Shown in pieces: positions 177-12,094 of a stretch of 12,094 bases of DNA. A program made the translations under genes and the position numbers. Source of the stretch: a virus (Duplodnaviria > Heunggongvirae > Uroviricota > Caudoviricetes); IMG/VR virus record IMGVR_UViG_2802429253_000011; one strand, 5' to 3'. The notes beneath the pieces were generated by a model. It had not been told where the DNA came from, ran no database searches, and saw only the letters and a list, made by a program, of their open reading frames with translations. Within the stretch, counting starts at the first letter, position 1, and the number at the start of each line of letters is the position of its first letter.

Positions 177-683
177 TTATCGCCCACGCACTACCAGTGC
201 CTGATCCAACTCCCGATATGCCTCAACCAGTTTCTCCAGAGAAACTCGACTTAAACCGCTGGGATTCGGCAATACCCAAATCTGCGTCGAACCAATGGTC
301 AGCGTTTGTTTCCCCCACTGCACGCCTCGCTGACTGAATCCCTGTTCATACGCCTGCTTACCCAGAATCGCCAACGCCTGCGGCTGATAATTCTCAATTT
401 TTTCAATTAGCTTGCGCCCACCTGCGTGCAATTCCTGCTTTGACACTTCATTAGCCTGCACCGTTGGCCTGTCAACCAGTTTGGTGACGCCACAACGATA
501 ATCCAGCAGATGCTGCGCTTCCTGCGGCTTCAACTGACGGTCGGTAAACCCGGCCTGATAAATCACCTTCCAGAAGCGATTCGCCGGATGGGCAAACGGA
601 AAACCAGACTCCGCGGAAGAAAGACCCGGATTGATGCCACAAAACACCACACGCAATCCTGGCGCAAGAATATCGTCAACCAT
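177..683 (-). CDS. mug: G/U mismatch-specific DNA glycosylase Mug (uracil-DNA glycosylase family 2), 168 aa
   Basis: Translation from the internal Met ([23 protein letters not shown]...[14 protein letters not shown]...LVVRGR) matches E. coli Mug almost residue for residue as recalled. ATG at 681-683 is preceded by AGGAG; stop TAA at 177-179. The track ORF 177..782 adds a 33-aa upstream extension that runs into the tRNA promoter region and is not supported. Confidence 0.9.
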
Positions 684-808: not shown

Positions 809-884
809 GGCCCCTTAGCTCAGTGGTTAGAGCAGGCGACTCATAATCGCTTGGTCGTTGGTTCAAACCCAACAGGGGCCACCA
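809..884 (+). tRNA. ileX: tRNA-Ile2 (anticodon CAU, lysidine-type; ileX/ileY class), 76 nt including encoded CCA
   Basis: Cloverleaf readable by eye: acceptor GGCCCCT/AGGGGCC, D-arm GCTC-AGTGGTTAG-GAGC, anticodon loop CTCATAA (CAT at 842-844), T-arm GTTGG-TTCAAAC-CCAAC, 3' ACCA. Overall sequence resembles E. coli ileX rather than Met/fMet tRNAs. The position next to mug matches the K-12 ileX locus as recalled. Confidence 0.85.
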
Positions 885-892
885 TATCTATC

Positions 893-929
893 AAGGGGTT
901 ACGTTAACAGCGTGACCCCTTCGTTTTTT
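893..929 (+). terminator. Intrinsic terminator of the tRNA gene
   Basis: Stem AAGGGGTTAC (893-902) / GTGACCCCTT (912-921) with one mismatch, 9-nt loop, followed by CGTTTTTT (922-929). Confidence 0.6.
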
Positions 930-1425
930 CTAGGATACCTATAGGATACCGTGACAGAGTATAAGCAGGTATAAAAACAACAAGTTACGCAACATCATAC
1001 CTGTCATGAAACTTTAACTATCCGACATGATAGCTGGTCGATAATCACGGATAATCCGTTATGTGGATCCCCATATCGGCATCAGGCCCACCAGCGTGAA
1101 GCGTTTTTCATTTTTCGCGGGTATAAAAAATCGATGGGGCTGGCAGTCCGGAAGACGTCAGGGTACAGAGATTTGACCCGCCCCTCCCTGTGCATGGGCA
1201 CAATAAGTAACCGAAGGCGGAATTCCGCCCTCGGTACTCACATATGAGAAACGATATTTCTTCCTCTGATAACCAAAATATGGGTATCACAAGTAACCCC
1301 CAAAATCTGGGTGTTGCTCTTACTACCCAAACTACGGGTAGTTTCCGTAATTTCATGGTCGAGTTGCAGATCTGCAACTCACCCACCAGCCAACGCAATT
1401 TTGCGTTATCGGGAATATCAGCAAG

Positions 1426-1713
1426 TTACCGCCGCAGCCGTTCCGGCTTCTTCCACTGGTAAGTATTTTTCGCGCTCTCCCTCCGTTGTTGAGAACGGCG
1501 ACGGTATGCCAGCAACTCAAGAACTCTGGTTCGTATGTTGCGCATATCCACGCCGTTAAGCTCAATACCGTCACGGCGCATCACCTCAGCCACCACACGC
1601 GCGTAATTTTCAGCGGTGACTGTATCCGGCTGCGCGGCCTGTTCGTCAGCCAACTGGCTGATTCCACCAGCACAGCGGATTAATCGCAGTATTTCAGATT
1701 CGGTCATTATCAT
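1426..1713 (-). CDS. Hypothetical 95-aa protein, translationally coupled to the TerS-like gene
   Basis: Its ATG (1711-1713) overlaps the TGA stop (1710-1712) of the upstream gene in an ATGA arrangement. No family recognised. The basic C-terminal tail may be read-through of non-coding DNA, so it could be a 5' fragment. Confidence 0.4.
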   Translation of the reverse strand: MIMTESEILRLIRCAGGISQLADEQAAQPDTVTAENYARVVAEVMRRDGIELNGVDMRNIRTRVLELLAYRRRSQQRRESAKNTYQWKKPERLRR

Positions 1714-2195
1714 GCCTGTTTTGCGACCTCATTCACTACGTCATTTTTTACCATCCGGCTGATAATCTGATTACACAAATCGTCAATAATTGACTGCACT
1801 CTGTTTACTGCCATCGGTTTAAGCCCGGCATCACGTGCCAGAATATTGGGGAGTTTTGCCAGTTCCTCGCTTACGATTTCCCCCCATATAGCCATCTCTT
1901 TTCGCACATCATCGGCGGGTATGAGTTGCGCCGTTTCCTGTTCGAACCTGAGGCGCTCACGTTCGGACTGATACCAGGCCTTACGGTCATGTGGCTCCAT
2001 TTCTTCCAGTGATGCCGGAACGGGAAGATCAAGAAAACAGGTCAGAATGTCAGTCACCCGATAGAGTTTCAGCTTGTCATGCCCTCCGGCTGGCTGGATG
2101 TTTTTCAACCTTGCCGCCGCAGTCTGACGACATATTCCCGCTATCGCCGCCAGTTGATTAATGTTCAGCATCAGATTTTTCAGTTCTCGATCCAT
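1710..2195 (-). CDS. Terminase small subunit-like protein (lambda Nu1-type N-terminal HTH), about 161 aa
   Basis: N-terminal LNINQLAAIAGICRQTAAARLKNIQPAGGHDKLKLYRVTDIL parallels the lambda Nu1 DNA-binding motif (KKQLADIFGASIRTIQNWQEQGMPV...EVLYDSAAVIKWY). Start chosen at the internal ATG 2193-2195 with GGAG 5 nt upstream; the track ORF runs to 2282 without an RBS. Confidence 0.55.
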   Translation of the reverse strand: MDRELKNLMLNINQLAAIAGICRQTAAARLKNIQPAGGHDKLKLYRVTDILTCFLDLPVPASLEEMEPHDRKAWYQSERERLRFEQETAQLIPADDVRKEMAIWGEIVSEELAKLPNILARDAGLKPMAVNRVQSIIDDLCNQIISRMVKNDVVNEVAKQA

Positions 2196-2348
2196 ACCCG
2201 CTCCAGAATGTTTTAAACATGCATCTTGCGAACAACTTTCAGAAGAGGTCAAAAAATGCGCTATATGTTGAGCATAAAACAAGCAAAATTAACATACTAA
2301 AAATAAAAATACTTAAAATTCAATATCATATAAAGATGATGATGACGA

Positions 2349-2421
2349 ATGAAAATGCAAAAACTAGCCTTTTTCCGCGCCGCTCCCGCCCCGTGGCAGG
2401 CCACCTCACCGGGAGGACCCA
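2349..2421. repeat. Copy A of a 73-bp direct repeat (partner at 5699-5771)
   Basis: 69 of 73 positions identical to copy B, no indels, same orientation. GC-rich core with dyad CTCCCG...CGGGAG. Lies between a terminator and the TerS-like operon. Confidence 0.8.
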
Positions 2422-2466
2422 CCCAAAAAAGGCGACTGTCACTATTGTTTATGCTCCATGAGCGAC

Positions 2467-2488
2467 AAAACCGCCCGCAGGCGGTTTT
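2467..2488 (-). terminator. Intrinsic terminator (bidirectional) after the gpI-like gene
   Basis: Perfect hairpin AAAACCGCC-CGCA-GGCGGTTTT, 18 bp beyond the gpI-like stop (2506-2508), T-runs on both sides. Confidence 0.6.
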
Positions 2489-2505
2489 ACATAAAACGTT
2501 TTGTA

Positions 2506-3177
2506 TCAGCGACCAATCACCACAATCTGGCCGCCATCCCCTTCGTCTGCCGTGCTGATCTCCTGAGAGACCACCCGCGACCCCACGCGCATTTCACCGT
2601 ACAGAACGGGCAGAACATTGCCCTGGGCAACCATGTTATCCAGTGAGGAGAAATAGGTGTTCTGTTTGCCGTTATCTGTACTTGCTGCCGTGGGCGTCCT
2701 GGCTTTCGGTGCCAGCATCTGCGCCACACCACCAAGTACCATACTGGCACCGAGAGAAAACAGGATACCGGTCATACCACCGGCCCCAATGGCTGCCCCC
2801 CATGCTGTAAGGGTGGCTCCGGCGGTAAAGAATGATCCGGCAATGGCGGCTGCTCCCAGGACAATCTGGAATACACCACCTGACTTGGCCCCGGCGACTC
2901 TGGGAACAATATGAATCACAGCGCCATCAGGCAGAGTCTCATGTAACTGCGCCGTTAATCCGGACGTGCTGACATCCTGCCCGGCAATCCGTACCTGATA
3001 CCAGCCGTCGCTCAGTTTCTGACGAAACGCCGGGAGCTGTGTGGCCAGCGCCCGGATGGCTTCGGCCCCCGTTTTCACACGCAGATCGATGCGGCGGCCA
3101 AATCGTTGTAAATCCCCGTAAAGGCAGATGCGTGCCATGCCTGGTGACGCCAGAGGGAGTGTGTGCGTCGCTGCCAT
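2506..3177 (-). CDS. Lambda tail-tip assembly protein I (gpI) homolog, 223 aa
   Basis: Translation MAATHTLPLASPGMARICLYGDLQRFGRRIDLRVKTGAEAIRALATQLPAFRQ... with a Gly/Ala-rich hydrophobic C-terminal half matches lambda gpI as recalled, nearly identical over the full length. ATG at 3175-3177, TGA at 2506-2508. Confidence 0.7.
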   Translation of the reverse strand: MAATHTLPLASPGMARICLYGDLQRFGRRIDLRVKTGAEAIRALATQLPAFRQKLSDGWYQVRIAGQDVSTSGLTAQLHETLPDGAVIHIVPRVAGAKSGGVFQIVLGAAAIAGSFFTAGATLTAWGAAIGAGGMTGILFSLGASMVLGGVAQMLAPKARTPTAASTDNGKQNTYFSSLDNMVAQGNVLPVLYGEMRVGSRVVSQEISTADEGDGGQIVVIGR

Positions 3178-3266
3178 TTGTCGGTATACCTCTCTCGTTT
3201 GCTCAGTTGTTCAGGAATATGGTGCGGCAGCTCGCCGCCCCACGTGTTCAAAGTACCGCCTTGTTG

Positions 3267-5180
3267 TCATGCTCCATTCGATTTCAGCAATCCACGATAA
3301 TCGAGGGCCGCGACACCTGCATCTATGCGCACCTTCCAGGCGACACCATCAACAGTAAAGCCCACCTGCTCCTCAAGATATGGCGTATCCATACCATCAA
3401 GATAAGCGACTTCTATTGTGTCCATCCCCTTAGCTGCGGCTACATACCATTCCTTGCTATTGGCCTTATCAAGACGTGGCTCAACAATTACTTCTGCCAT
3501 ATCTTTCACCACGTTAATGATGCCGGGGTTCTGATTGATAGTGCCCTCATCACCAACCGGAAAGACTGATGACGATGACAGAATGGCGCGACGCGCGGCA
3601 GATTCCAGCGCGGCAGGGACCAGAACAAAAGCAGGGGTAATATTCAGTGAGTCGCCGTTAGCATCCTCCTGGAGGCGCATCAGCTTACGGGCTTCATCAA
3701 GCCCCACCATGTCCATATCCTTCGCAATAAGATTTTTATGATCGGCATGGAATAACGCTTTACCATCCGTAAACTTGCCGTTGCTGGTTAACAGGAGATA
3801 AACCAGATTGCCAACTGTTCTGGCGGCTGCGCGTCCCATCGCCATGGGGATTGTAGTTAACTGGGTCAGGTCATCGTTGATAATGGCCTGACGGGTAACG
3901 GAAAAAATATTCCCGTACGTGGCCAGCGCAATAGGTACACCTTTATCGCTGGTGGTGATGTATTTATATTCCGCACCTTCCGGTACTTTATCCAGCTTTG
4001 AAAAACCATTCAGACCAACGCGCTTTGCTTCATGAAAGTTTGAAAGCGAACCGGTACGCGTCCATTTCTGGAACGTTTCGCCGCTGTCCTGCCAGCCTTT
4101 CAGTACAGATTTTTCAGCCCCACCAGCCAGAATATGAGAAAAATCACTGCTGCTGTGTGTAAAAGCCGCATTAACAACCTGCGAGCGATTAATAAAACCA
4201 CTCACAGTGATACCACGATCAACCAGTGATGCCTGGGCCATTTCAAAAAGGCTCATCATCGCGTAAGGGTTGCCTCGTTCAGGGCGTTCATACCCAAGAC
4301 GGGAATAAAGCCCCTGACGAATTGCATCACCTGTTATGTTTCCGTTTCCGGCATAGATATGAGGCGGGGTATTTTTATTGGATGGCGTGGACTCGCGCCC
4401 CAGCTCGTTCAACAGCTTTTCACGGGCCATTTCCGGTGTACATGATGCATCTTCCAGACACGCCATTTTGATCCCGTCGTAACGACTGCCGAACAGGCTA
4501 AACACTTCACTTATTCCATTGATGCGTTTCTGTTCATTACCAGCAATATTTGCCGCTCCCTGTGGCGGTGTAATCATTCCTTTAATGGTTTCCGGCATAT
4601 GTAAAAAATCTCCTGTACGTTTCGATTCAATTCGCGCCATTGCTCTGACGGATGGCAACAATTCATCAGCAAAACCGTGCTTAAGGCATTCTTTCCCATC
4701 CATCCAGGTTTCATCCTCCAGCATGGCGGTAATTTCCTGTGCTGATTTGCCCGTTTTTCTGGCATAAGCAGGGATTAACACGGTTTCCACCTTATCCAGC
4801 AAATCAGCATAATCACGCATATCGCCAGCATTTCCGCCAGAGATCCCCCACGGTTTATGGATCATCATCATGGCGTTCTCCGGCATCACTACACGATCGC
4901 CAGCCATTGCGACCACCGAAGCCATTGAAGCCGCAACACCATCGATATAAACCGTAATGTCTGCCGGATGATTCCGTAGCAGGTTATAGATGGCGATGCC
5001 TTCAAACACATCACCACCTGGTGAATGGATCCTCAGATTGATATGTGAAACATCGCCAAGGGCTTTCAGGTCTTCCGCGAACTGCTTTGCAGTAACACCG
5101 AAGCCGCCAATCTCCTCATAGATAGATATATCCGCCGCTCCGCGAACATCCGCCGCCTTAATGGTGTACCAGCGATTCAT
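3267..5180 (-). CDS. Fusion of prohead protease (ClpP/S14-like) and HK97-fold major capsid protein, 637 aa
   Basis: N-terminus carries ClpP-like motifs (INLRIHSPGGDVFEGIAIYNLL, DGVAASMASVVAMAGD, MMMIHKPWG); the C-terminal ~400 aa has the composition and length of an HK97-family capsid protein. Start ATG 5178-5180 overlaps the upstream stop (TAATG). Confidence 0.8.
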   Translation of the reverse strand: MNRWYTIKAADVRGAADISIYEEIGGFGVTAKQFAEDLKALGDVSHINLRIHSPGGDVFEGIAIYNLLRNHPADITVYIDGVAASMASVVAMAGDRVVMPENAMMMIHKPWGISGGNAGDMRDYADLLDKVETVLIPAYARKTGKSAQEITAMLEDETWMDGKECLKHGFADELLPSVRAMARIESKRTGDFLHMPETIKGMITPPQGAANIAGNEQKRINGISEVFSLFGSRYDGIKMACLEDASCTPEMAREKLLNELGRESTPSNKNTPPHIYAGNGNITGDAIRQGLYSRLGYERPERGNPYAMMSLFEMAQASLVDRGITVSGFINRSQVVNAAFTHSSSDFSHILAGGAEKSVLKGWQDSGETFQKWTRTGSLSNFHEAKRVGLNGFSKLDKVPEGAEYKYITTSDKGVPIALATYGNIFSVTRQAIINDDLTQLTTIPMAMGRAAARTVGNLVYLLLTSNGKFTDGKALFHADHKNLIAKDMDMVGLDEARKLMRLQEDANGDSLNITPAFVLVPAALESAARRAILSSSSVFPVGDEGTINQNPGIINVVKDMAEVIVEPRLDKANSKEWYVAAAKGMDTIEVAYLDGMDTPYLEEQVGFTVDGVAWKVRIDAGVAALDYRGLLKSNGA

Positions 5181-5386
5181 TATTCCCCCACCGATGCAAA
5201 ACCATTCTGATTAAGCCAGGTGTTTACGGCATGTCTGACAATCTGCGCCACACCTGGTAATGGTTTGTCAGGATGATGATTTATATGGTCGATCCTGTAC
5301 TGCTTAAGGCGCATAACGGTCTGCGCATCCAGATGAACGGAACCACCCCTGATATCGCCCGTGTTCAGGTCATTAATACAACTCAC
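5180..5386 (-). CDS. Hypothetical 68-aa protein, first gene of the capsid operon
   Basis: GTG start at 5384-5386 preceded by a strong RBS (AAGAGGAAG); stop overlaps the capsid start. Function unknown. Confidence 0.5.
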   Translation of the reverse strand: MSCINDLNTGDIRGGSVHLDAQTVMRLKQYRIDHINHHPDKPLPGVAQIVRHAVNTWLNQNGFASVGE

Positions 5387-5487
5387 AGTAACTTCCTCTT
5401 ACTGACTAAACTGTGCACATTATTGATCGATAAAAGTGGTAGATAAACATATTTCTATCATAAAAACAGATTAATGAGATTCAGACA

Positions 5488-5511
5488 CAAAAAAGCCGGA
5501 GAAAATCCGGC
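5488..5511 (-). terminator. Intrinsic terminator or attenuator in the leader upstream of the 68-aa gene
   Basis: On the minus strand GCCGGA-UUUUC-UCCGGC followed by six U (plus-strand stem 5495-5511, A-run 5489-5494). Confidence 0.5.
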
Positions 5512-5698
5512 ATAAATATCCCGCCATCTGAACACGTTTTGACACAGGCAACTCCACCTGGCAGGTGAAAAACAGATTTATTTATATATTTCAATTAATT
5601 GCAAACTGGTCTAATGACAGGGAGAAAAAAATATTGTACAGGTGAAAACAGAAATAACTTTTAATTATCAATAAATTATCACACATGCTGCCGCCGCC

Positions 5699-5771
5699 AT
5701 GAAAATGCAAAAACCAGCCTTTTTCCGCGCCGCTCCCGCCCCGTGGCAGGTCACTACACCGGGAGGACCCA
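5699..5771. repeat. Copy B of the 73-bp direct repeat (partner at 2349-2421)
   Basis: Differs from copy A only at 5715, 5751, 5755 and 5756. Abuts the terminator at 5772-5795. Confidence 0.8.
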
Positions 5772-5795
5772 TAAAAAAGCCGGATTGCTCCGGCT
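5772..5795 (-). terminator. Intrinsic terminator ending the primase/origin transcription unit
   Basis: Stem AGCCGGA (5778-5784) / TCCGGCT (5789-5795), loop TTGC; on the minus strand it is followed by six U (complement of A5773-A5778). Confidence 0.6.
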
Positions 5796-5931
5796 TCTGT
5801 CACTCGTTGCTTAAAACGGTATGTTATCCCCGTACGGATCATCATTCCCCGCCTGTTGTTTTGGTGTGCTTCGCTGTCATAGGCTTTATCTCACAGCAGT
5901 AAATTAAAATTTTTGCGTTTTAACCCTTCAC

Positions 5932-6154
5932 CTGTTCACCTTTTGATATTTTCTCTTTTAATTCATAATGTTAAGGGGTGAACAGTTTCACAAAAACTAT
6001 TCACCAACTGTTCACCACTGTTCACCCTTGAAGCTCAATAAACAATCAAAAAGGTGAACAGTGAATAGTTTGGTGAACAGTTCATAAATAACTGTTCACC
6101 CTATAATATACTGATATAAAAGATATTTATGACAGGGTGAACAGTGGTGAACAG
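5932..6154. repeat. Iteron array, candidate replication origin (P4 ori/crr-like)
   Basis: Eleven copies of CTGTTCACC or its complement GGTGAACAG (two of them variants, CTATTCACC and GTGAATAG) at 5932, 5977, 5997, 6008, 6018, 6053, 6061, 6072, 6092, 6136 and 6146, in both orientations, interleaved with AT-rich tracts (5941-5974, 6101-6134). Ends 20 bp from the primase stop. TGTTCACC is the type I iteron bound by P4 alpha protein. Confidence 0.75.
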
Positions 6155-6173
6155 TTATTCCATAAGTTTAATT

Positions 6174-7985
6174 TTAGCTATCGTCATTAGTGACCGATAC
6201 ACATGATGGCATCCAGTCTTCTGATTCCTCCGTCAGTGTCACGTTTGAACGCAAACCGTGCTTCGTTTTCCGTTTCATATACTCCCTGCCATATTCCGCC
6301 ATTGCCCCCGGCATATCTTTACCGAAGCGCGTCAGTGTTACAGGTTTACCAAACCCATGTGCCCTCATATAAGCCAGATAGGCATGATAGAGATACCTGC
6401 GTGGGCTGAATGGCACAATTTCAGCATTACCCACTAACAGGCCATCACACATTACCGACGCCATGAGATAGCCGCAGAAGTCCACCAGCGAATCCCCCTC
6501 TCGCTTTATCGCCAGTGCTTCTTCAGATTTCTGCTGCTCATATAACAGGCGTCTGGCTTCGTCCTGGTCAGCAAACCGTGTAAGCAGATGGCGAATCACT
6601 ACCGCCAGCTCACCTTCTATTTTTTCCGCCAGCATTGGATCGCGTTCGTTCTCCGGTACAACTTCCGAAAAATTGAATATCACCCGACGACGTGAGATCC
6701 CCCCGCTGCGGTCACTGAATGACATGGCGTTATTGTTAACCGCCAGCACTACTGCCGGAATACGCGTTGAGTAGGGGGCTTTGTGTTTCGGGTCAATTGC
6801 CACCTTGTCACCGCCTGTAATAGCCTTAATCCCTGCCCCATCACCAGCGTAGCGGGTCATATCCGGCATGATAATCAGCGAAAAGCCAACCACTAACGCG
6901 CGTTCCCTTGCATCTTCCAGCGCCTTCATGCTTGCCGATACTGTGTTGGCCTTACCCGCCAGCATGGTGCAAATCTCCGCCATCACGCTTTTACCACTTC
7001 CCCCTGGACCTGTTACCTCAATGAATAACTGCCAGTCGTACCGGTTCGCCAGCACCATGAATAATGCAGCCAGTACGCGATCCGCCTTGCGGTCATTCTC
7101 AGCCACCGAACGGCGTAACCACTTCCAGAAATTCGGCGCATGTGTTGCCAGCGTTTCCCCCTCTGCTGGTGGGCTGAAAGGTAATTCACTGGCAATTAAC
7201 AACCAGTCGTTTTTGTTATGCTCCCGAAAATTACCTGTTCTGGTATCAAATACCCCGTTACTGAATCCAATCAGGTTACGGGCTGTATTCCCCATAACAG
7301 GCAAACTTAACTTCATGGTATCGACCGCCGATTTAATGGCGTTCTGCGAATAGCTGATCTCCGCATCAATGAAAATCTGTGCCATAGCTCGCTGTAATTC
7401 TTTATCCTGTACTGGCTCCCATACAACGCCGTTGTAATGGTGAACAGTATCAGAGTCGGCATGAATCGCCAGTTCACCGCCATAATGTGCCAGGAGAACT
7501 TCGCCGCGTTGACTTGCTCCCATCTGGTTAAGCGCCAGTGATGAAGCGTTATCGTCTTTTACCCGCTCTTTTTTCTTTACAGGCAGTTCAACTACCTTTT
7601 TCTTTTCCGCCTGCTCTGCCCGTTCACGTTCCAGATATTCGCGCCAGTTCTCCCGTTTCTGGCTGTGCATTCCTTCAGGATAATAATCAGCATCCCTGAC
7701 ACCGGCCGCTGCCAGTTTCTGCCCGATGGTATTAACAAGCCCCGGACGCAATAACCCCGCCTGATAGAGACGCACACGATAGCGTCCGTCCGGTACGATT
7801 TGCAGGTTGTCCAGTTCGGCAAGTTGTTGCTCTCCAAGCCAGACAGGAGGCACGTTATCGCCAGCCAGTCGCCCGTCCTGTTCCTGCCACTGCTTCGCAT
7901 GTGCCCACGCATCACTACCCGCAAAAATGATGACTTCCGTCATTTTGTCACGTGGCTGGTGTTTTAAATTTGGCGCTTTTTTCAT
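6174..7985 (-). CDS. P4 alpha-type primase/helicase (N-terminal primase region, SF3 helicase with Walker A GPGGSGKS)
   Basis: Long ORF with VTGPGGSGKS, followed by residues typical of the phage/plasmid primase P4-family C-terminal domain. Start assigned to ATG 7983-7985, which overlaps the upstream stop (ATGA); track start is a GTG at 8000. Iterons lie directly downstream. Confidence 0.8.
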   Translation of the reverse strand: MKKAPNLKHQPRDKMTEVIIFAGSDAWAHAKQWQEQDGRLAGDNVPPVWLGEQQLAELDNLQIVPDGRYRVRLYQAGLLRPGLVNTIGQKLAAAGVRDADYYPEGMHSQKRENWREYLERERAEQAEKKKVVELPVKKKERVKDDNASSLALNQMGASQRGEVLLAHYGGELAIHADSDTVHHYNGVVWEPVQDKELQRAMAQIFIDAEISYSQNAIKSAVDTMKLSLPVMGNTARNLIGFSNGVFDTRTGNFREHNKNDWLLIASELPFSPPAEGETLATHAPNFWKWLRRSVAENDRKADRVLAALFMVLANRYDWQLFIEVTGPGGSGKSVMAEICTMLAGKANTVSASMKALEDARERALVVGFSLIIMPDMTRYAGDGAGIKAITGGDKVAIDPKHKAPYSTRIPAVVLAVNNNAMSFSDRSGGISRRRVIFNFSEVVPENERDPMLAEKIEGELAVVIRHLLTRFADQDEARRLLYEQQKSEEALAIKREGDSLVDFCGYLMASVMCDGLLVGNAEIVPFSPRRYLYHAYLAYMRAHGFGKPVTLTRFGKDMPGAMAEYGREYMKRKTKHGLRSNVTLTEESEDWMPSCVSVTNDDS

Positions 7986-8281
7986 TTCTGCTCTCTCCAC
8001 GCGGCAATCATGTTTTTCAGTTCCTGTAGTTTTTTATCCACATTCACACGTGACACATGGTTATTTCTGGAAAGCGGGATTTCCCGCCTGAATCTGCTAA
8101 TAAAGATCTCCACGTTCAGCGAACTATGAAATGAATAGCCATCACGAATAAAATACACACGGTCAAACATTATCGATTTTACTGTTACTCTGTTGCCGTT
8201 CTTATCCCGATAAATAGCGCCGGGGATAATTTTGGGATGTGCATAACCGCTGGCAGTCAAGCCAGATAAATACGTTCTCAT
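7982..8281 (-). CDS. Hypothetical 99-aa protein, coupled to the primase
   Basis: ATG 8279-8281; stop overlaps the primase start. No family recognised. Confidence 0.5.
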   Translation of the reverse strand: MRTYLSGLTASGYAHPKIIPGAIYRDKNGNRVTVKSIMFDRVYFIRDGYSFHSSLNVEIFISRFRREIPLSRNNHVSRVNVDKKLQELKNMIAAWREQK

Positions 8282-8287
8282 GATTAT

Positions 8288-8608
8288 TTATCCCCGATTT
8301 GAATCAGTATTCGCTTTCTTTATGGCATTTAATGCATCTGTGGCATTTTCAATGGTGCACCGTAACGAAATATCAAAATGTCCAAGCATTGCCAGTAACA
8401 AACCGATATTACCCATATCAATGCGCATGGCCTTTTCGTCATAGTCCTCATTTTCTGACGCATGCCACATCAGGCTACCAATTGACGCAACGGCCATTGA
8501 TATATTGTCAGTCGCCACATCCGCAGCGGAATAAACCTTTTTAGCAATATCATGCTCACAGTTAAAATGCGGATTAATCAGGTACTGGTAATTTGACATA
8601 TCAGGCAT
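8288..8608 (-). CDS. Hypothetical 106-aa protein
   Basis: ATG 8606-8608 overlaps the upstream stop (ATGCCTGA); RBS GGGGG. Acidic protein, no family recognised. Confidence 0.5.
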   Translation of the reverse strand: MPDMSNYQYLINPHFNCEHDIAKKVYSAADVATDNISMAVASIGSLMWHASENEDYDEKAMRIDMGNIGLLLAMLGHFDISLRCTIENATDALNAIKKANTDSNRG

Positions 8609-8804
8609 GGCACACCCCCTGACGAATACGGGCGGCGAATACCATCACGCAGCCAGCCGGGGATTGCTGGCGTGCTTCCTGTTCGCTGGTGGCCACGATG
8701 GTAATCACACGCGGTTTTGCGGCGCTCAGGGCGATAAAACGCCAGGCGAATTTATTCAGGTTGTGCGAATCCCGCCCTTGCGGGTGTATGGTATGATTTC
8801 TCAT
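8601..8804 (-). CDS. Small Icd-like protein (P4-family host cell division inhibitor-like), 67 aa
   Basis: MRNHTIHPQGRDSHNLNKFAWRFIALSAAKPRVITIVATSEQEARQQSPAGCVMVFAARIRQGVCHA; ATG 8802-8804 with GAGG 6 nt upstream. The track merges it into a 334-aa ORF whose upstream part is antisense to real plus-strand genes. Family call is from memory of Icd-like annotations. Confidence 0.5.
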   Translation of the reverse strand: MRNHTIHPQGRDSHNLNKFAWRFIALSAAKPRVITIVATSEQEARQQSPAGCVMVFAARIRQGVCHA

Positions 8805-8842
8805 AGCTACCTCGATACTCTCGTTATCGTTGGTGGTTAGAA

Positions 8843-8887
8843 GCCCTGCGAGTGGTAACGACACTTGCGGGGCTTTGTTTTTTGTTG
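8843..8887 (+). terminator. Plus-strand intrinsic terminator or attenuator in the divergent control region
   Basis: 12-bp stem (8843-8854 / 8862-8873) with two G-U wobble pairs that only pair in plus-strand RNA, 7-nt loop, then UUUGUUUUUUGUUG. Confidence 0.5.
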
Positions 8888-8899
8888 CACTTACTGTTA

Positions 8900-8950
8900 A
8901 TGTACGTACGTAATATTGATGATAATAGGAGTTACGTACGTACATGTCAA
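8900..8950 (-). promoter_or_regulatory. Leftward promoter (TTGACA-17-TATTAT) overlapped by a pair of 14-bp perfect inverted repeats (operator)
   Basis: On the minus strand, -35 TTGACA is at 8950-8945 and -10 TATTAT at 8927-8922 with a 17-bp spacer. ATGTACGTACGTAA (8900-8913) and TTACGTACGTACAT (8932-8945) are exact reverse complements and flank the RBS and start codon of the RHH gene. Confidence 0.6.
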
Positions 8951-9135
8951 CATTAAAGCGGGATAAATCACCACGCGGCGAGGGATGGTCGCCGACATTC
9001 CAGATACGAATTAGCAAAGAACTACGCCAGCAAGTAAACGAGGCAGCAACCGCCGATGGCCTAACCCTCGGCAATTGGTTTAAAGAATTAGCTCGTGCCG
9101 AACTAAAGCGACGCGGCATTGAACCTAAAGGCTGA
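8944..9135 (+). CDS. Ribbon-helix-helix (Arc/CopG-like) DNA-binding protein, 63 aa
   Basis: FQIRISKELRQQVNEAATADGLTLGNWFKELARAEL has the strand-helix-helix pattern of RHH regulators. AGGAG at 8927-8931; start codon sits inside the right operator arm. Confidence 0.55.
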   Translation: MSTLKRDKSPRGEGWSPTFQIRISKELRQQVNEAATADGLTLGNWFKELARAELKRRGIEPKG

Positions 9136-9138
9136 TGT

Positions 9139-9264
9139 ATGACTGAAAAGCAGACCGATAACAAACTTTCTCTACCAGAGAATAAACCAGCAGGCTTCTT
9201 ACCAAGAAAAATCCTTGATGAGATCAAACGCCGCCAGCGGCGCAAGGCCAAAGAGCAGGAGTAA
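9139..9264 (+). CDS. Possible 41-aa basic peptide, or 5' part of an interrupted gene
   Basis: ATG 4 nt after the RHH stop; ends at TAA 9262-9264; same frame as the next ORF. Confidence 0.2.
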   Translation: MTEKQTDNKLSLPENKPAGFLPRKILDEIKRRQRRKAKEQE

Positions 9265-9321
9265 CCATCACCAGCGCCGTGGTGCGGTGAACTGTGGCGC
9301 ACAGGGTTACAGGTATCTACG

Positions 9322-9501
9322 ATGACTGACAAATCATTAAAGAAATTATCCTCATCCAAGAAAAAACAACGCAAAAATGCGGTAAACGAACATGAACCGG
9401 AGAGATTCGCACCATGTGCGTTTATCCTTGAGAAGTACCTTAAAGAGTATTCTAGGAAAATACGCTCATTGCAGGCATGGCAGCGAATCGAGCCAGACTG
9501 A
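9322..9501 (+). CDS. Possible 59-aa Lys-rich protein, or 3' part of an interrupted gene
   Basis: ATG 9322-9324 to TGA 9499-9501; in frame with 9139-9264 and no other stops between them; followed by a terminator. Confidence 0.2.
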   Translation: MTDKSLKKLSSSKKKQRKNAVNEHEPERFAPCAFILEKYLKEYSRKIRSLQAWQRIEPD

Positions 9502-9566
9502 TAGCATTGCCCACCAGCCAACAACCTGGTATTCTGGATATGCTCAAGTTTAGTGTTATGCCACTG

Positions 9567-9594
9567 GCGGCCCTCTGCGGTCGCCTTTGTTTTA
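9567..9594 (+). terminator. Intrinsic terminator of the rightward small operon
   Basis: Stem GGCGGCC (9567-9573) / GGTCGCC (9579-9585) with one G-U pair, 5-nt loop, then UUUGUUUUAUG. Confidence 0.5.
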
Positions 9595-9611
9595 TGTGCC
9601 ATCACTCCCCC

Positions 9612-9821
9612 TTACACCGTCTGCGTTCTGCGAGTGGATGCAAGATAAGCATCGAGATCAGTGCGCATATACAGCACTTTGCGCCCCAGCTTATGGAAAG
9701 GGATTTTTACCTTGCCAGTACAGGCCCAGTTCGCCAGCGTTTGATTGTTAACGCCAAGGTAGGCAGCAGCTTCAGCACGTGTAAGGCGGTCAGTTGATAA
9801 ATCAGATTTCTTTAAATTCAT
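9612..9821 (-). CDS. AlpA/Xis-family helix-turn-helix DNA-binding protein, about 69 aa
   Basis: LTRAEAAAYLGVNNQTLANWACTGKVKIPFHKLGRKVLYMRTDLDAYL fits the small AlpA/excisionase-type HTH family. ATG 9819-9821 chosen; an alternative GTG at 9830 gives 72 aa. Confidence 0.7.
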   Translation of the reverse strand: MNLKKSDLSTDRLTRAEAAAYLGVNNQTLANWACTGKVKIPFHKLGRKVLYMRTDLDAYLASTRRTQTV

Positions 9822-9882
9822 ATCTATCACCGTGTACTTCTAAGTAACAACGGTGATAAATATCAATCAATGGGTATTTTGT

Positions 9883-9968
9883 TTTTAGCCCAATAGCCAG
9901 TTGCTGTGGGGAGGTTACCAGTTATTTAGCCTTAATAGCCAGCTATTAAGATACACTAGCCAGCTATT
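9883..9968. promoter_or_regulatory. Operator-like repeats upstream of the AlpA-like gene
   Basis: Two ~24-bp direct repeats (9883-9907, 9925-9948) each containing the ATAGCCAG motif; the second holds the perfect palindrome AATAGC-CA-GCTATT (9934-9947); a third copy TAGCCAGCTATT is at 9957-9968. Confidence 0.45.
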
Positions 9969-10689
9969 GGGGGTGAACAAGTTCAAACGAAGAATATTTA
10001 TCAGGTCTTGGTGGTTGTGCTCCTGATTCTTTAATCCATTTATCCAGAGTGTTTTTACTTACTTTCCCATGATAGTAAACAGAAAGCTCGTTCAATAAAC
10101 CTGTTTTACTGGCTTTAGGGTACTTTTCCCATGTTAGTTTAATTACGTGCATAACTTCATTGTAATAATGATTTCTTGGTTTGCGCGCTTTTTCTTTCTG
10201 TGATAAGGATAAAGCATCTTTTATTTTTTTATCTTTTTCATGGTTCGATATAATTTCTTCAAAAAAGTCATTAAGCAATAACTCAACACCAACCCTAGTA
10301 AGTTTGTCTGCGTGATTACGCATTCCGACATGGTACAATGCAACTGCTGAATTTAAAGTATCGACAACCTGACAAGATAGTTTACTATCAAATATTAAAA
10401 AACCACATGAATCCATTCTTATAGCTAATTCAATAGGATATTGCTCGATTTCTCTTAATTCTAAACCATAACACAAAAGAAATTCTCTTGTTGGATACTT
10501 TGATTTATAAAAATAATCTCTTATATCATCAATCAAGCGTTTTATAGCCTCTATGGTGGAGTTTTTCGGGGATAAAGATACAGGAACGTTTAAAACTGAA
10601 GAGTCTCGCCCACCAGTAATTAAATCATTCATAACCGAATAAATAATATATTGTTTGACCGATATATTGTTATCACCCATATATGTCAT
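9964..10689 (-). CDS. Hypothetical protein (238-241 aa), AT-rich, translationally coupled to the integrase
   Basis: ORF noticeably more AT-rich than its neighbours by eye. Candidate ATG at 10678-10680 overlaps the integrase stop (ATGGGTGA); track start is at 10689. No motif recognised (no Walker A, no transmembrane segment). Confidence 0.55.
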   Translation of the reverse strand: MTYMGDNNISVKQYIIYSVMNDLITGGRDSSVLNVPVSLSPKNSTIEAIKRLIDDIRDYFYKSKYPTREFLLCYGLELREIEQYPIELAIRMDSCGFLIFDSKLSCQVVDTLNSAVALYHVGMRNHADKLTRVGVELLLNDFFEEIISNHEKDKKIKDALSLSQKEKARKPRNHYYNEVMHVIKLTWEKYPKASKTGLLNELSVYYHGKVSKNTLDKWIKESGAQPPRPDKYSSFELVHPQ

Positions 10690-12094
10690 TCTTTTCTTGT
10701 ACTATAGCAAATAGTAAACGACGTTTTTCATCATCACTCATGCCCTCCAGTGCGGAAAGTAATTGCGCATCGATAGATTTTTTACTCTCCACCAGCCCGG
10801 CATGTTCCAGAATTGCCCGTTCTATCCGTGATGCTGGCTCCAGCAGTTCATCAGCACCGAAATGTAAATACCCCTGCGTTACGTCGGCACTTCGCATAGT
10901 GCGGTGATTCATCAGGCGCTTGAGGATGTAATTACCCACGCCCACCAGCTCAGCAACCGTTCCGAACGTCCGGCGTGCGTCGTGCCACTTAAACGGGACA
11001 GGGAAGAGCATTTCATCGTTCGCCTCAGGAATGGTAGCCGCGCTTATCCGGTCTATGATGTGCCGTGTCTCCTGAATCACTCCCTTCACGCCAGGAAACA
11101 CCAGCACATCATCAGCAGCTTTGTTTTTTAGCCTGCGAAGAAACATTTTCCGCAACGTATCAGTGATCGGCAGTTCAAGCGGATCCCCGTTTTTCGTGGT
11201 GTCTATCCAGAAAAAGCGACCGCCCATATTCACGCGATCCCACGTAAGGCCAAAAACTTCTGATTTCCTCAGTCCGGTAAACAGTGCCATTTCCACGGCA
11301 TCACATACCGTAACAGCTATATCATCCCTTTCCTGTTCGCCCTGGTCGCGCACAGCAGCTACAGCAGCAAACCAGCGGGGAAAATCATGCAGGCGGATAC
11401 GTTCCGTTTTTCTTACCGTTCCGTGCCACTGGCGCTTGGTGCTCAGTACCAGAGTCGGCGGATCCGGTAAAAGAGTATTACCCGCATCATCACGGTAATG
11501 ATCATGCGCAAACCGACACACAGCACGTAGCGCACGCGCCCATAAATCGGCCTGTGCCTTGCTTCCTGTACCAACCCCAGCCCGTAACGTGGTTTTATCA
11601 GCACCGAACCATACAGCCCCATCAGTGATGGCCTTATGCCGTTGTTCCACCCGTTCGCGGGAAATACTGGCGAGGGTATGGGCCATCCAGTCACCGGAAT
11701 AATTCTGTAATATGCTGCGGTACTGTTTTTCTGTGGAGGGTTTCAGGCGGTGGCCACGATTTTTTACGTAGGCGTCAATCGCCTCACTCAGCGTTATCAT
11801 GGCCTTGTTGTTAGTGCGCTTTGCTATGTTCGGATTTATCCCCGTTGTGGCGACTTCGCCAAGGAGTTCCATAGCTTTAGCCCTGGCATTATCCACGCTC
11901 AGATCAGGAAAACGCCCCAGCGTTGCACGAATAAATTTTCCGTTACGCTTACGGGAAATGCAGAAACTTTTCACACCAGACGAACCTACACGGACACGCA
12001 GCCCGTTAACCTCCGTATCACCATATTCGACCTGTCCATGTTCCGGCGTTGGCAGTTCTGCAATTTTTACTTTAGAGAATCTGAATAATTTCAC
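10673..12094 (-). CDS. Tyrosine recombinase/integrase (P4-type with N-terminal arm-binding DUF4102-like domain), 5' end at window edge
   Basis: N-terminus GLRVRVGSSGVKSFCISRKRNGKFIRATLGRFPDLSVDNARAKAMELL is typical of P4-family integrase arm domains; C-terminal HDARRT and downstream Tyr region fit the catalytic domain. The only in-window start is a GTG at 12092-12094, so the true start may lie beyond the window. Confidence 0.8.
   Translation of the reverse strand: MKLFRFSKVKIAELPTPEHGQVEYGDTEVNGLRVRVGSSGVKSFCISRKRNGKFIRATLGRFPDLSVDNARAKAMELLGEVATTGINPNIAKRTNNKAMITLSEAIDAYVKNRGHRLKPSTEKQYRSILQNYSGDWMAHTLASISRERVEQRHKAITDGAVWFGADKTTLRAGVGTGSKAQADLWARALRAVCRFAHDHYRDDAGNTLLPDPPTLVLSTKRQWHGTVRKTERIRLHDFPRWFAAVAAVRDQGEQERDDIAVTVCDAVEMALFTGLRKSEVFGLTWDRVNMGGRFFWIDTTKNGDPLELPITDTLRKMFLRRLKNKAADDVLVFPGVKGVIQETRHIIDRISAATIPEANDEMLFPVPFKWHDARRTFGTVAELVGVGNYILKRLMNHRTMRSADVTQGYLHFGADELLEPASRIERAILEHAGLVESKKSIDAQLLSALEGMSDDEKRRLLFAIVQEKNDIYG

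Follow-up and report, generated by a model that had tools for sequence, protein, structure and literature searches.

The DNA of the viral record IMGVR_UViG_2802429253_000011 (Caudoviricetes) raises the question of which kind of mobile element occupies a tRNA-Ile2 locus, how it came to lie there, and which phages could carry it to other cells. The window, that is, the whole analysed stretch of 12,094 nucleotides, contains an island that spans from the tRNA gene ileX to the right edge and in which every substantial open reading frame (ORF) is encoded on the minus strand. An earlier note, made from the sequence alone, had described it as a P4/PICI-type satellite (PICI, phage-inducible chromosomal island) with a P4-family core. 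With a probability of roughly 0.9, this region is considered here to be one integrated Gram-negative PICI with the architecture of EcCICFT073, ~11.4 kb long and located in the anticodon-loop region of ileX. The satellite is thus borne out, by synteny with EcCICFT073, by the replication module and by the cos sites together with the small terminase subunit (TerS), while the assignment to the P4 family gives way to a PICI of the EcCICFT073 type, the P4 genes sid, delta, psu, epsilon and vis being without homologues in the window. Since the element combines its own replication genes with lambda-type packaging signals, it could be spread by a helper phage. Protein domains and families were searched in Pfam, PHROG, PADLOC (defence systems) and NCBIfam, RNAs with Rfam and ARAGORN, and related genomes by megablast against 5426 complete E. 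coli genomes.

Read inward from its right end, the element follows the four-zone order with an inward-facing int that has been described for PICIs (PMC10111431). The integration zone comprises a tyrosine integrase of 473 amino acids (aa) with Arm-DNA-bind_3 and Phage_integrase domains (10673-12094), the accessory gene p241 and a putative regulator of the HTH_17 family, and is followed by a small regulatory region. The replication zone holds an icd-like ORF, p106, a DUF4222 gene, the Pri-Rep gene and an iteron origin, and the late zone consists of a cos site (cos2), p68, a ClpP-capsid fusion, a captured lambda gene I, a further cos site (cos1), TerS and p95. Of the five core components listed for a Type A PICI in SatelliteFinder (PMC10085698), integrase, primase-replicase, capsid morphogenesis and terS are present, and the HTH_17 gene is a candidate for the fifth, the regulator. 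Moreover, none of the ORFs is disrupted, and those of meaningful size in the 11.4 kb can all be accounted for. Among the genes of the element, int lies farthest from the tRNA, and the main genes are co-oriented, as in EcCICFT073; the distal integrase and the leftward course of all major genes had been correctly recognised in the earlier note. The size (11,090 and 11,218 bp in the two copies described below, and ~11.4 kb here) lies within the range of ~8-15 kb expected of a PICI, with att repeats and with empty sites in related genomes.

The position of the element can be read from the tRNA gene itself. A hybrid tRNA-Ile2 gene (ileX, anticodon CAT) lies at 809-884 on the plus strand (ARAGORN; Rfam, 72 bits) and forms attL. 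Its 5' half is identical to ileX of K-12 and represents host DNA, while its 3' part from ~858 onward, including the T-arm GTTGGTTCAAACCCAAC, is element-derived, as shown when the empty site of K-12 and the attR sequences of two further copies, in strains GF4 (L001) and L73 (L002), are aligned with it. Relative to the native T-arm GCTGGTTCAAGTCCAGC, that of the window carries compensating changes. The att core ACTCATAATCGCTTGGTCG (19 nt, 839-857, plus strand) is identical in attL, attR and attB and covers the anticodon loop, the 3' anticodon stem and the variable loop, the crossover taking place somewhere inside it. The first element-specific base is 860, and element DNA begins within the tRNA. 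Therefore, the locus had been named correctly, but the element does not lie next to tRNA-Ile2 from position 930 onward, as had been proposed: it is inserted inside ileX. In the two copies, which are 97-99% identical to the element, the core occurs twice, with a spacing of 11,218 bp in GF4 and 11,090 bp in L73. In both, the native 3' half (CTCATAATCGCTTGGTCGCTGGTTCAAGTCCAGCAGGGGCCACCA in ileX) has been displaced to a place 181 bp beyond the integrase start, where it is followed in GF4 by the native ileX terminator. Of the two alternatives that had been put forward, a tRNA-proximal att site far from int is therefore confirmed, whereas an element that merely abuts ileX is not.

The window ends exactly at the integrase start codon, so that attR is not inside it. 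However, its right 6.2 kb are 99.3% identical to the GF4 copy and, projected from the latter, the element would end ~181 bp past the window edge, which gives the length of ~11.4 kb. On integration, the 3' half of the tRNA was swapped for the copy supplied by the element, and its native counterpart was moved to the opposite end, beside int. The predicted attP junction reads …ATCAACCAACTCATAATCGCTTGGTCGTTGGTTCAAACCC…, and the integrase lies ~10 kb from the intact tRNA because attP is situated just 5' of int, with its tRNA-like segment pointing away. Just 3' of the rebuilt tRNA, hairpin search and sequence inspection reveal an element-supplied, terminator-like hairpin (893-921, plus strand), followed by tandem AGGATACC repeats (932-950, plus strand) as candidate arm-type sites of the integrase in the P' arm. 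This motif is far above chance, with three occurrences in the window against 0.21 expected, two of which form the tandem pair, and six in GF4 against 0.45 expected, clustered at both ends of the element, three of them upstream of int. At attR in ileY of L73 (20150-20170 of L002), the acceptor stem of the displaced tRNA fragment carries an A in place of a native G (CAGCAAGGGCC); damaged attR tRNA fragments have been reported in some tRNA-Ile2 PICIs (PMC10111431).

The comparison with empty sites, which had been suggested as a check, agrees with this arrangement. In K-12, mug is followed by ileX and then directly by nfeF, and six near-isogenic genomes, whose flank is 99.2-99.5% identical to that of the window, also show these genes adjacent around an empty ileX. 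Because empty sites and paired junctions are both found, the genes belong neither to a conserved core genome at the ileX locus nor to two unrelated elements. In the host flank itself (157-857), which includes mug (177-683, minus strand), the identity to E. coli K-12 and GF4 reaches only 89-90%. As public records assign the exact Mug protein to Escherichia marmotae, this species is the probable host. The first 156 bases of the window are the end of an IS4 copy that lies just past the 3' end of mug, a place taken in K-12 by the mug-rpoD intergenic region; the IS4 sequence is 99.4% identical to IS4/insG of E. coli and absent from the six empty-site genomes. It recurs at numerous contig ends of Kosakonia oryziphila and of a metagenome-assembled genome of Scandinavium.

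Copies 97-98% identical to the element occupy the same locus in E. coli, from mug-ileX to nfeF (e.g., in GF4), and copies are also found at the second tRNA-Ile2 gene, ileY, an identical tRNA gene (e.g., in L73). Exact matches of the element proteins are recorded in E. coli, Shigella sonnei or multispecies Escherichia entries, and close cluster relatives in E. fergusonii and Klebsiella pneumoniae; the exact integrase is indexed in 1450 blocks of the genome collection, TerS on 63 contigs and the capsid fusion on 44. The element has undergone recent horizontal transfer, since its identity to E. coli copies (97-99%) far exceeds that of the flanks across species, two identical tRNA genes are used and near-isogenic empty sites exist.

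The replication zone further connects the element with EcCICFT073 and, to a lesser extent, with P4. The Icd-like ORF (8601-8804; NF033153, E=1.9e-18), the alpha-type primase/helicase and the P4-type iterons had all been predicted and could be confirmed. The 608-aa protein Pri-Rep (6174-8000), with D5_N, the SF3 helicase family DUF5906 and a Pox_D5 C-terminal domain, is 50.7% identical to residues 320-771 of P4 alpha, its helicase and DNA-binding part, and 48.6% identical to Pri of EcCICFT073, although the N-terminal primase part of P4 alpha does not align with it. Directly 3' of this gene lies the replication origin (5932-6154), in which ten CTGTTCACC iterons in both orientations surround AT-rich DNA, so that a primase-replicase with an iteron origin immediately 3', as expected of a PICI, is present. 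The octamer corresponds to the type-1 repeat TGTTCACC of the P4 ori and, allowing one mismatch at most, occurs 17 times in the window against 2.27 expected, a number reached in none of 200 shuffles. Between the icd-like ORF and Pri-Rep are encoded the 106-aa protein p106 (8288-8608; phrog_15327) and a DUF4222 protein (7982-8281) syntenic with EcCICFT073. The stretch 8614-8877, covering most of the Icd-like ORF and its leader, shows 93% nucleotide identity to EcCICFT073, while the neighbouring proteins are just 36-49% identical.

In the late zone, two cos sites can be predicted that had escaped the earlier note, as had the captured gene I. An 80-nt direct repeat, whose copies at 2349-2428 and 5699-5778 are 91% identical, reads as two lambda-like cos sites on the minus strand: it aligns with cosQ-cosN of lambda, with phi458 and cdtI, and with the cos upstream of rppA in EcCICFT073. 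In lambda, cosN (GGGCGGCGACCT) is flanked by GGGTCCTTTCCGGTGATCCGACAGGTTACG on the left and CGCGGG on the right, and in this element cosN (GGGCGGGAGCGG) is flanked by GGGTCCTCCCGGTGAGGTGGCCTGCCACG and CGCGGA. At cos1 (cosQ-cosN, 2349-2428), the 12-nt cohesive end GGGCGGGAGCGG is predicted at 2391-2380 and is followed by ~185 nt of phage-like cosB and then by terS, the same layout as in lambda; the cos1-terS region is 78-81% identical to phages of the phi458/mEp460 type. At cos2 (5538-5778), the same cosN is predicted at 5741-5730, and the 204 nt downstream match the left ends of cdtI and Tritos with 93-94% identity, a homology that runs 20 nt into the terS of these phages and then stops. The first base of these two independent phage records matches position 5741 exactly, which supports cleavage at the position equivalent to that of lambda.

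Phage Ayreon was dropped as a cos reference because of a rearranged or duplicated terS fragment beside its cos, and phi458, cdtI and lambda were used. In the Ayreon record (L009/L007), an ORF annotated as "late gene regulator", which holds a ~65-nt duplicate of the 3' part of terS, separates the left and right cos halves, an arrangement that may be either an assembly artefact or a real rearrangement. In some relatives of the element (L051, L052 and L053, at ~16351 and ~18887), the two cosN copies differ by one or two bases, the 3' ends of the 12-mer being GAGCGG, GAGCGT, GAACGG or GAGAGT, and ends cut at different cos sites would thus not be fully complementary in these relatives; the two copies in the window are identical.

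The TerS homologue (DUF1441, 161 aa, 1710-2195), identified by family and PHROG searches, is a member of the family that is encoded next to TerL at the left end of lambdoid cos phages. Over residues 1-150, a stretch that takes in the N-terminal DNA-binding part, its identity to TerS of phage vB_EcoS-606R10 amounts to 70%, while only residues 66-140 align with TerS of cdtI (47%). An assignment as Rpp, the packaging-specificity protein of EcCICFT073, was discarded for lack of similarity to RppA, and no sequence match was found between the DUF1441 protein and solved structures, including RppC and lambda Nu1. Together with the two lambda-like cos sites, this TerS homologue supplies the packaging determinants of a PICI. 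It is tempting, albeit doubtful, to regard the two cos sites as a dual-specificity packaging device. Cos1, ~79-81% identical to phage cos, would be read by the PICI's own TerS, which has an N-terminus of the phi458/mEp460/606R10 type, and cos2 would be read directly by a helper terminase of the cdtI/Tritos type, whose TerS has a different N-terminus. If true, one satellite would be packaged by two terminase-specificity groups that share one head module.

The capsid/TerS module that the earlier note had placed in lieu of the P4 late genes is present, as shown by TerS and by a 637-aa fusion of ClpP-like prohead protease, scaffold and major capsid protein (3267-5180; NF045540, 900 bits), which provides the capsid-morphogenesis component of a PICI. 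This fusion represents an old, diverged and PICI-specific lineage rather than a recent capture, since it is at most ~58% identical to any phage copy and 29 residues are missing from its linker. Upstream of it lies the conserved 68-aa protein p68 (5180-5386; phrog_4934), whose stop overlaps the capsid gene start and which occupies the same place in EcCICFT073. The last gene encodes a conserved 95-aa terminal PICI protein, p95 (1426-1713; phrog_1561, E=1e-52), 74% identical to the last gene product of EcCICFT073 (tblastn).

Between the capsid gene and cos1, a segment at 2451-3243 (minus strand) is ~94-96% identical to lambda-type phages and, by pairwise alignment, window positions 3237-2453 correspond to lambda 14713-15497 with 93.9% identity. 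It consists of 60 nt upstream of gene I (inside K), the whole of gene I and the I-J terminator, and stops 8 nt before J. The tail-assembly gene I is intact (2506-3177), with 216 of 223 aa identical to lambda gpI. Of the 5426 complete E. coli genomes, 23 contain the junction of this segment with the capsid gene; it is missing from the GF4 copy. The captured gene might adapt the satellite to the tail-tip assembly of its helpers; neither this idea nor that of dual-specificity cos sites was found in the PICI literature cited here.

The late zone also varies as a unit. An identical integrase and front half are paired either with a late zone that combines the DUF1441 TerS with a ClpP-capsid fusion gene lying between two GGGCGGGAGCGN cos sites, or with one that contains cap_E, a gpD-like gene and Phage_Nu1, with lambda cosN GGGCGGCGACCT directly upstream of Nu1. 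Thus, cos, the terminase specificity gene and the capsid gene travel together, matching the head module of the helper. Across eight loci with the identical integrase (L047-L054), at least three different late zones are observed, and the cos type changes with the types of TerS and capsid; in one of these loci (L053), the element lies beside clpS/clpA and a lymphostatin island and not at ileX.

The integration zone and the adjoining regulatory region contain several candidates for control functions. The candidate for the AlpA-like regulator that had been expected is a 72-aa gene in the AlpA position (9612-9830), which matches the HTH_17/excisionase family and not Phage_AlpA in Pfam. An inverted repeat, TATCACCGT-N16-ACGGTGATA at 9816-9867, overlaps its start codon and may be a regulatory site of the satellite's activator gene; its half-sites resemble TATCACCGC, the half-site of the lambda operator. 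The icd-to-pri operon is preceded by a near-consensus, sigma-70-like promoter (TTGACA-17-TATTAT, 8950-8922, minus strand), which is bracketed by the inverted repeat ATGTACGTACGTA / TACGTACGTACAT, a candidate operator, and overlaps the start of a divergent ORF. The latter encodes a 63-aa, ribbon-helix-helix-like protein of the YlcI/YnfO type and forms, with a 41-aa ORF, a small pair on the plus strand (8944-9264) that has a counterpart at the same position in EcCICFT073 and from which a candidate repressor of the replication operon is inferred. Since the strong promoter is bracketed by the repeat and faces this ORF, the ACGTACGTA-type inverted repeat and the divergent ORF together suggest local repression of the replication operon. 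The icd leader folds into a stable hairpin (8876-8840, z-score -2.6), and no immunity RNA of the C4/isrK type was detected with Rfam in the whole window or in the icd leader, where nothing convincing beyond the tRNA was found.

Between int and the regulator gene, the AT-rich (~33% G+C) gene p241 (9964-10689) encodes 241 aa, of which the C-terminal ~85 are highly conserved and resemble a DNA-binding helix-turn-helix, and the N-terminal ~150 are variable. It has no match in Pfam, PHROG, PADLOC or NCBIfam, and its homologues comprise only 13 clusters, all hypothetical, in a narrow, enterobacterial family. AlphaFold predicts an all-helical structure (predicted local distance difference test, pLDDT, 79.6), for which a Foldseek search of the PDB returned nothing below E=0.98. 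This gene could encode a regulator or sensor, or be an accessory defence gene.

Some observations weigh against the region being an EcCICFT073-type PICI. The 72-aa regulator shows no detectable similarity to the regulators of EcCICFT073 or P4 and is not Phage_AlpA, so an AlpA-style induction can be proposed by analogy only. An HTH_17 regulator fits the alpA-less tRNA-Ile2 genotype of PMC10111431, a report that also places HTH_17 in the integration zone of PICIs. A tail gene, lambda I, is present although tail genes are "forbidden" in the SatelliteFinder PICI model (PMC10085698), a point on which the element departs from that model; this gene is not taken to exclude it from the PICIs because it is a single captured late gene, as in PMC10111431, where the capture of helper late genes by PICI late zones is described. 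For the right junction of this copy, which falls beyond the window edge, the position is projected from copies that are 99.3% identical there. Moreover, exact-match scans did not find the attP junction in IMG/VR or JGI metagenome contigs, and none of 80 primase-encoding IMG/VR loci contains attP or ends at cosN, which is weak evidence since most of these loci look like trimmed provirus calls. Finally, this is a computational analysis, in which no helper, induction, excision or packaging was observed.

Three other explanations can be weighed against the same data. The relationship of Pri-Rep to P4 alpha, the P4 type-1 iteron and the integrase, which shares the Arm-DNA-bind_3 and catalytic architecture with P4, would be compatible with a P4-like satellite of a P2-type helper whose sid-delta-psu hijacking operon was lost or replaced. 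Nevertheless, such an origin is very improbable: the absence of the P4 late genes, already recognised in the earlier note, is confirmed by tblastn, in which sid, delta, psu and epsilon gave nothing better than E=0.36 against the window, and none of these genes nor the cI region, vis/orf88, gop, beta or cII gave a match better than E=0.1. The Rfam search yielded no immunity RNA of the C4/isrK type, the cos sites are of the lambda and not of the P2/P4 type, the late genes are homologous to lambdoid head genes, and the gene order is that of EcCICFT073 throughout. The complete protease-scaffold-capsid fusion, the TerS homologue and even a tail-assembly gene could instead point to a capsid-forming PICI (cf-PICI), which builds its own capsids and steals only tails. 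However, the definition of cf-PICIs also requires genes for TerL, portal and head-tail adaptors or connectors (PMC10085698), and because no TerL, portal, adaptor or connector gene is found among the ORFs and domains of the window, there is only a slim chance that the element belongs to that class.

A decayed lambdoid prophage remnant, or a non-mobile island that keeps an integrase and a few head genes, would account for the lambda-like gene I, the cos sites, TerS and the capsid gene, and for the fact that no excised form was found among public contigs in the attP scans. This explanation is also highly improbable in view of the intact ORFs, whose exact proteins recur across public assemblies in the numbers given above, and of the four-zone gene order of PICIs with inward int. 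No holin, lysin, lambda-type early gene or structural tail gene is present among the ORFs and domains of the window, gene I being the sole tail gene, and the same backbone is found at ileX and ileY in several species, with an identity far above that of the flanks. Therefore, an integrated PICI of the EcCICFT073 type is the interpretation retained here.

Within the PICIs, the closest description is that of the elements in the tRNA-Ile2 gene that bear a CLP_protease gene, a distinctive integrase and no alpA (Mageeney et al. 2023, PMC10111431). The genotype is thus already catalogued, and the novelty of the element is low for this reason. As far as can be judged from the description in that paper, both share the tRNA-Ile2 site, the ClpP-protease late gene, the distinctive integrase, the lack of a Phage_AlpA gene (with HTH_17 instead), the inward int with four zones and the capture of late genes. 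However, the genotype is mentioned there briefly, as the target of helper-embedded PICIs, and the two cos sites, the TerS homologue and the captured gene I are not described; unlike in that account, the present copy resides in a chromosome of the E. marmotae type. The ileX site is also absent from a 2018 table of eight E. coli PICI att sites.

EcCICFT073, an E. coli PICI of the cos type that has been studied experimentally (PMC6092414, PMC6739421), provides the closest match in gene order; its two cos sites are reported together with the definition of PICIs and AlpA induction (PMC6092414). The early genes run in both from int through the HTH gene, the reversed small YlcI/YnfO pair, the icd-like ORF and DUF4222 to pri, and the late part from the origin through p68, the capsid gene or genes and the packaging-specificity gene to a terminal ORF of 93 aa (95 aa here). 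In both, cos lies directly upstream of the packaging-specificity gene and the size is ~11.4 kb. In contrast, EcCICFT073 sits between ycfD and phoQ and not in a tRNA gene, its integrase is unrelated to that of the element beyond the family level, its capsid genes are like lambda E and D instead of a ClpP-capsid fusion, its packaging gene encodes RppA, a 144-aa TerS-binding mimic, instead of a near full-length DUF1441 TerS, and its cosN is that of lambda, GGGCGGCGACCT, instead of GGGCGGGAGCGG. The element resembles P4 in its tyrosine integrase, which also has an arm-binding domain, in the use of a tRNA gene as integration site, in size (~11.5 kb), and in the helicase/DNA-binding replication protein and iterons, related as described above. 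However, P4 has sid, delta, psu, epsilon, the cI RNA, vis and a P2-type cos, genes that the element lacks, its own cos being lambda-type; moreover, the origin lies here downstream of the replication gene, and the integrase is distal to the intact tRNA and does not adjoin it.

The late genes lead to the probable helpers. The capsid fusion is 56-58% identical to those of lambdoid phages such as mEp460, phi458, Ayreon, cdtI, Tritos, Stx2a phages and Gifsy-2, to which TerS (70% in vB_EcoS-606R10 or 47% over part of its length in cdtI) and the regions of cos1 (78-81%) and cos2 (93-94% in cdtI and Tritos) are also related. Both groups of phages reflected in the cos flanks share a head module of DUF1441 TerS, TerL, gpW, portal and ClpP-capsid fusion. 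These phages differ from the element in TerL, portal, connectors, tails, lysis and early genes, of all of which the element has only the captured gene I, and are its likely helpers.

By analogy with EcCICFT073 and with PICIs generally (PMC6092414, PMC6739421), a life cycle can be proposed. A lambdoid helper with the DUF1441-TerS/ClpP-capsid head module (mEp460, phi458, cdtI, Tritos or Stx-phage type) would activate the HTH regulator, Int and the excisionase-type HTH protein would excise the element, and Pri-Rep would fire the iteron origin to generate concatemers. The TerL of the helper would then cut cosN, guided either at cos1 by the TerS of the PICI or at cos2 by that of a cdtI-type helper, and the cut concatemer DNA would be packaged into particles made by the helper. 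Since four units of the element amount to 45.7 kb and the genomes of the helpers to 44.5-47.0 kb, the default expectation would be that multimers fill full-size heads, which has been reported for EcCICFT073 (PMC6092414, PMC6739421). It is possible, instead, that the diverged capsid fusion of the PICI makes small heads.

This element thus offers a clean and fully dissected example of a PICI of the E. coli type that enters the tRNA-Ile2 genes ileX and ileY and crosses species of Escherichia. Its late zone represents a swappable cassette, in which cos, TerS and the capsid gene are exchanged as a unit on an otherwise identical backbone, according to the lambdoid helper. The presence of a near full-length, cos-type TerS where EcCICFT073 has Rpp, together with two cos sites whose flanks match two phage lineages, suggests a way in which the helper range may be widened. 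Moreover, a single tail gene can be captured precisely, and such elements would be overlooked or rejected by rule-based detection tools in which tail genes are forbidden. The cos flanks matching two lineages, a TerS where EcCICFT073 has Rpp and the exact excerpt of lambda with gene I add modest new details to what is known of these satellites, and the general picture of PICIs is unchanged.

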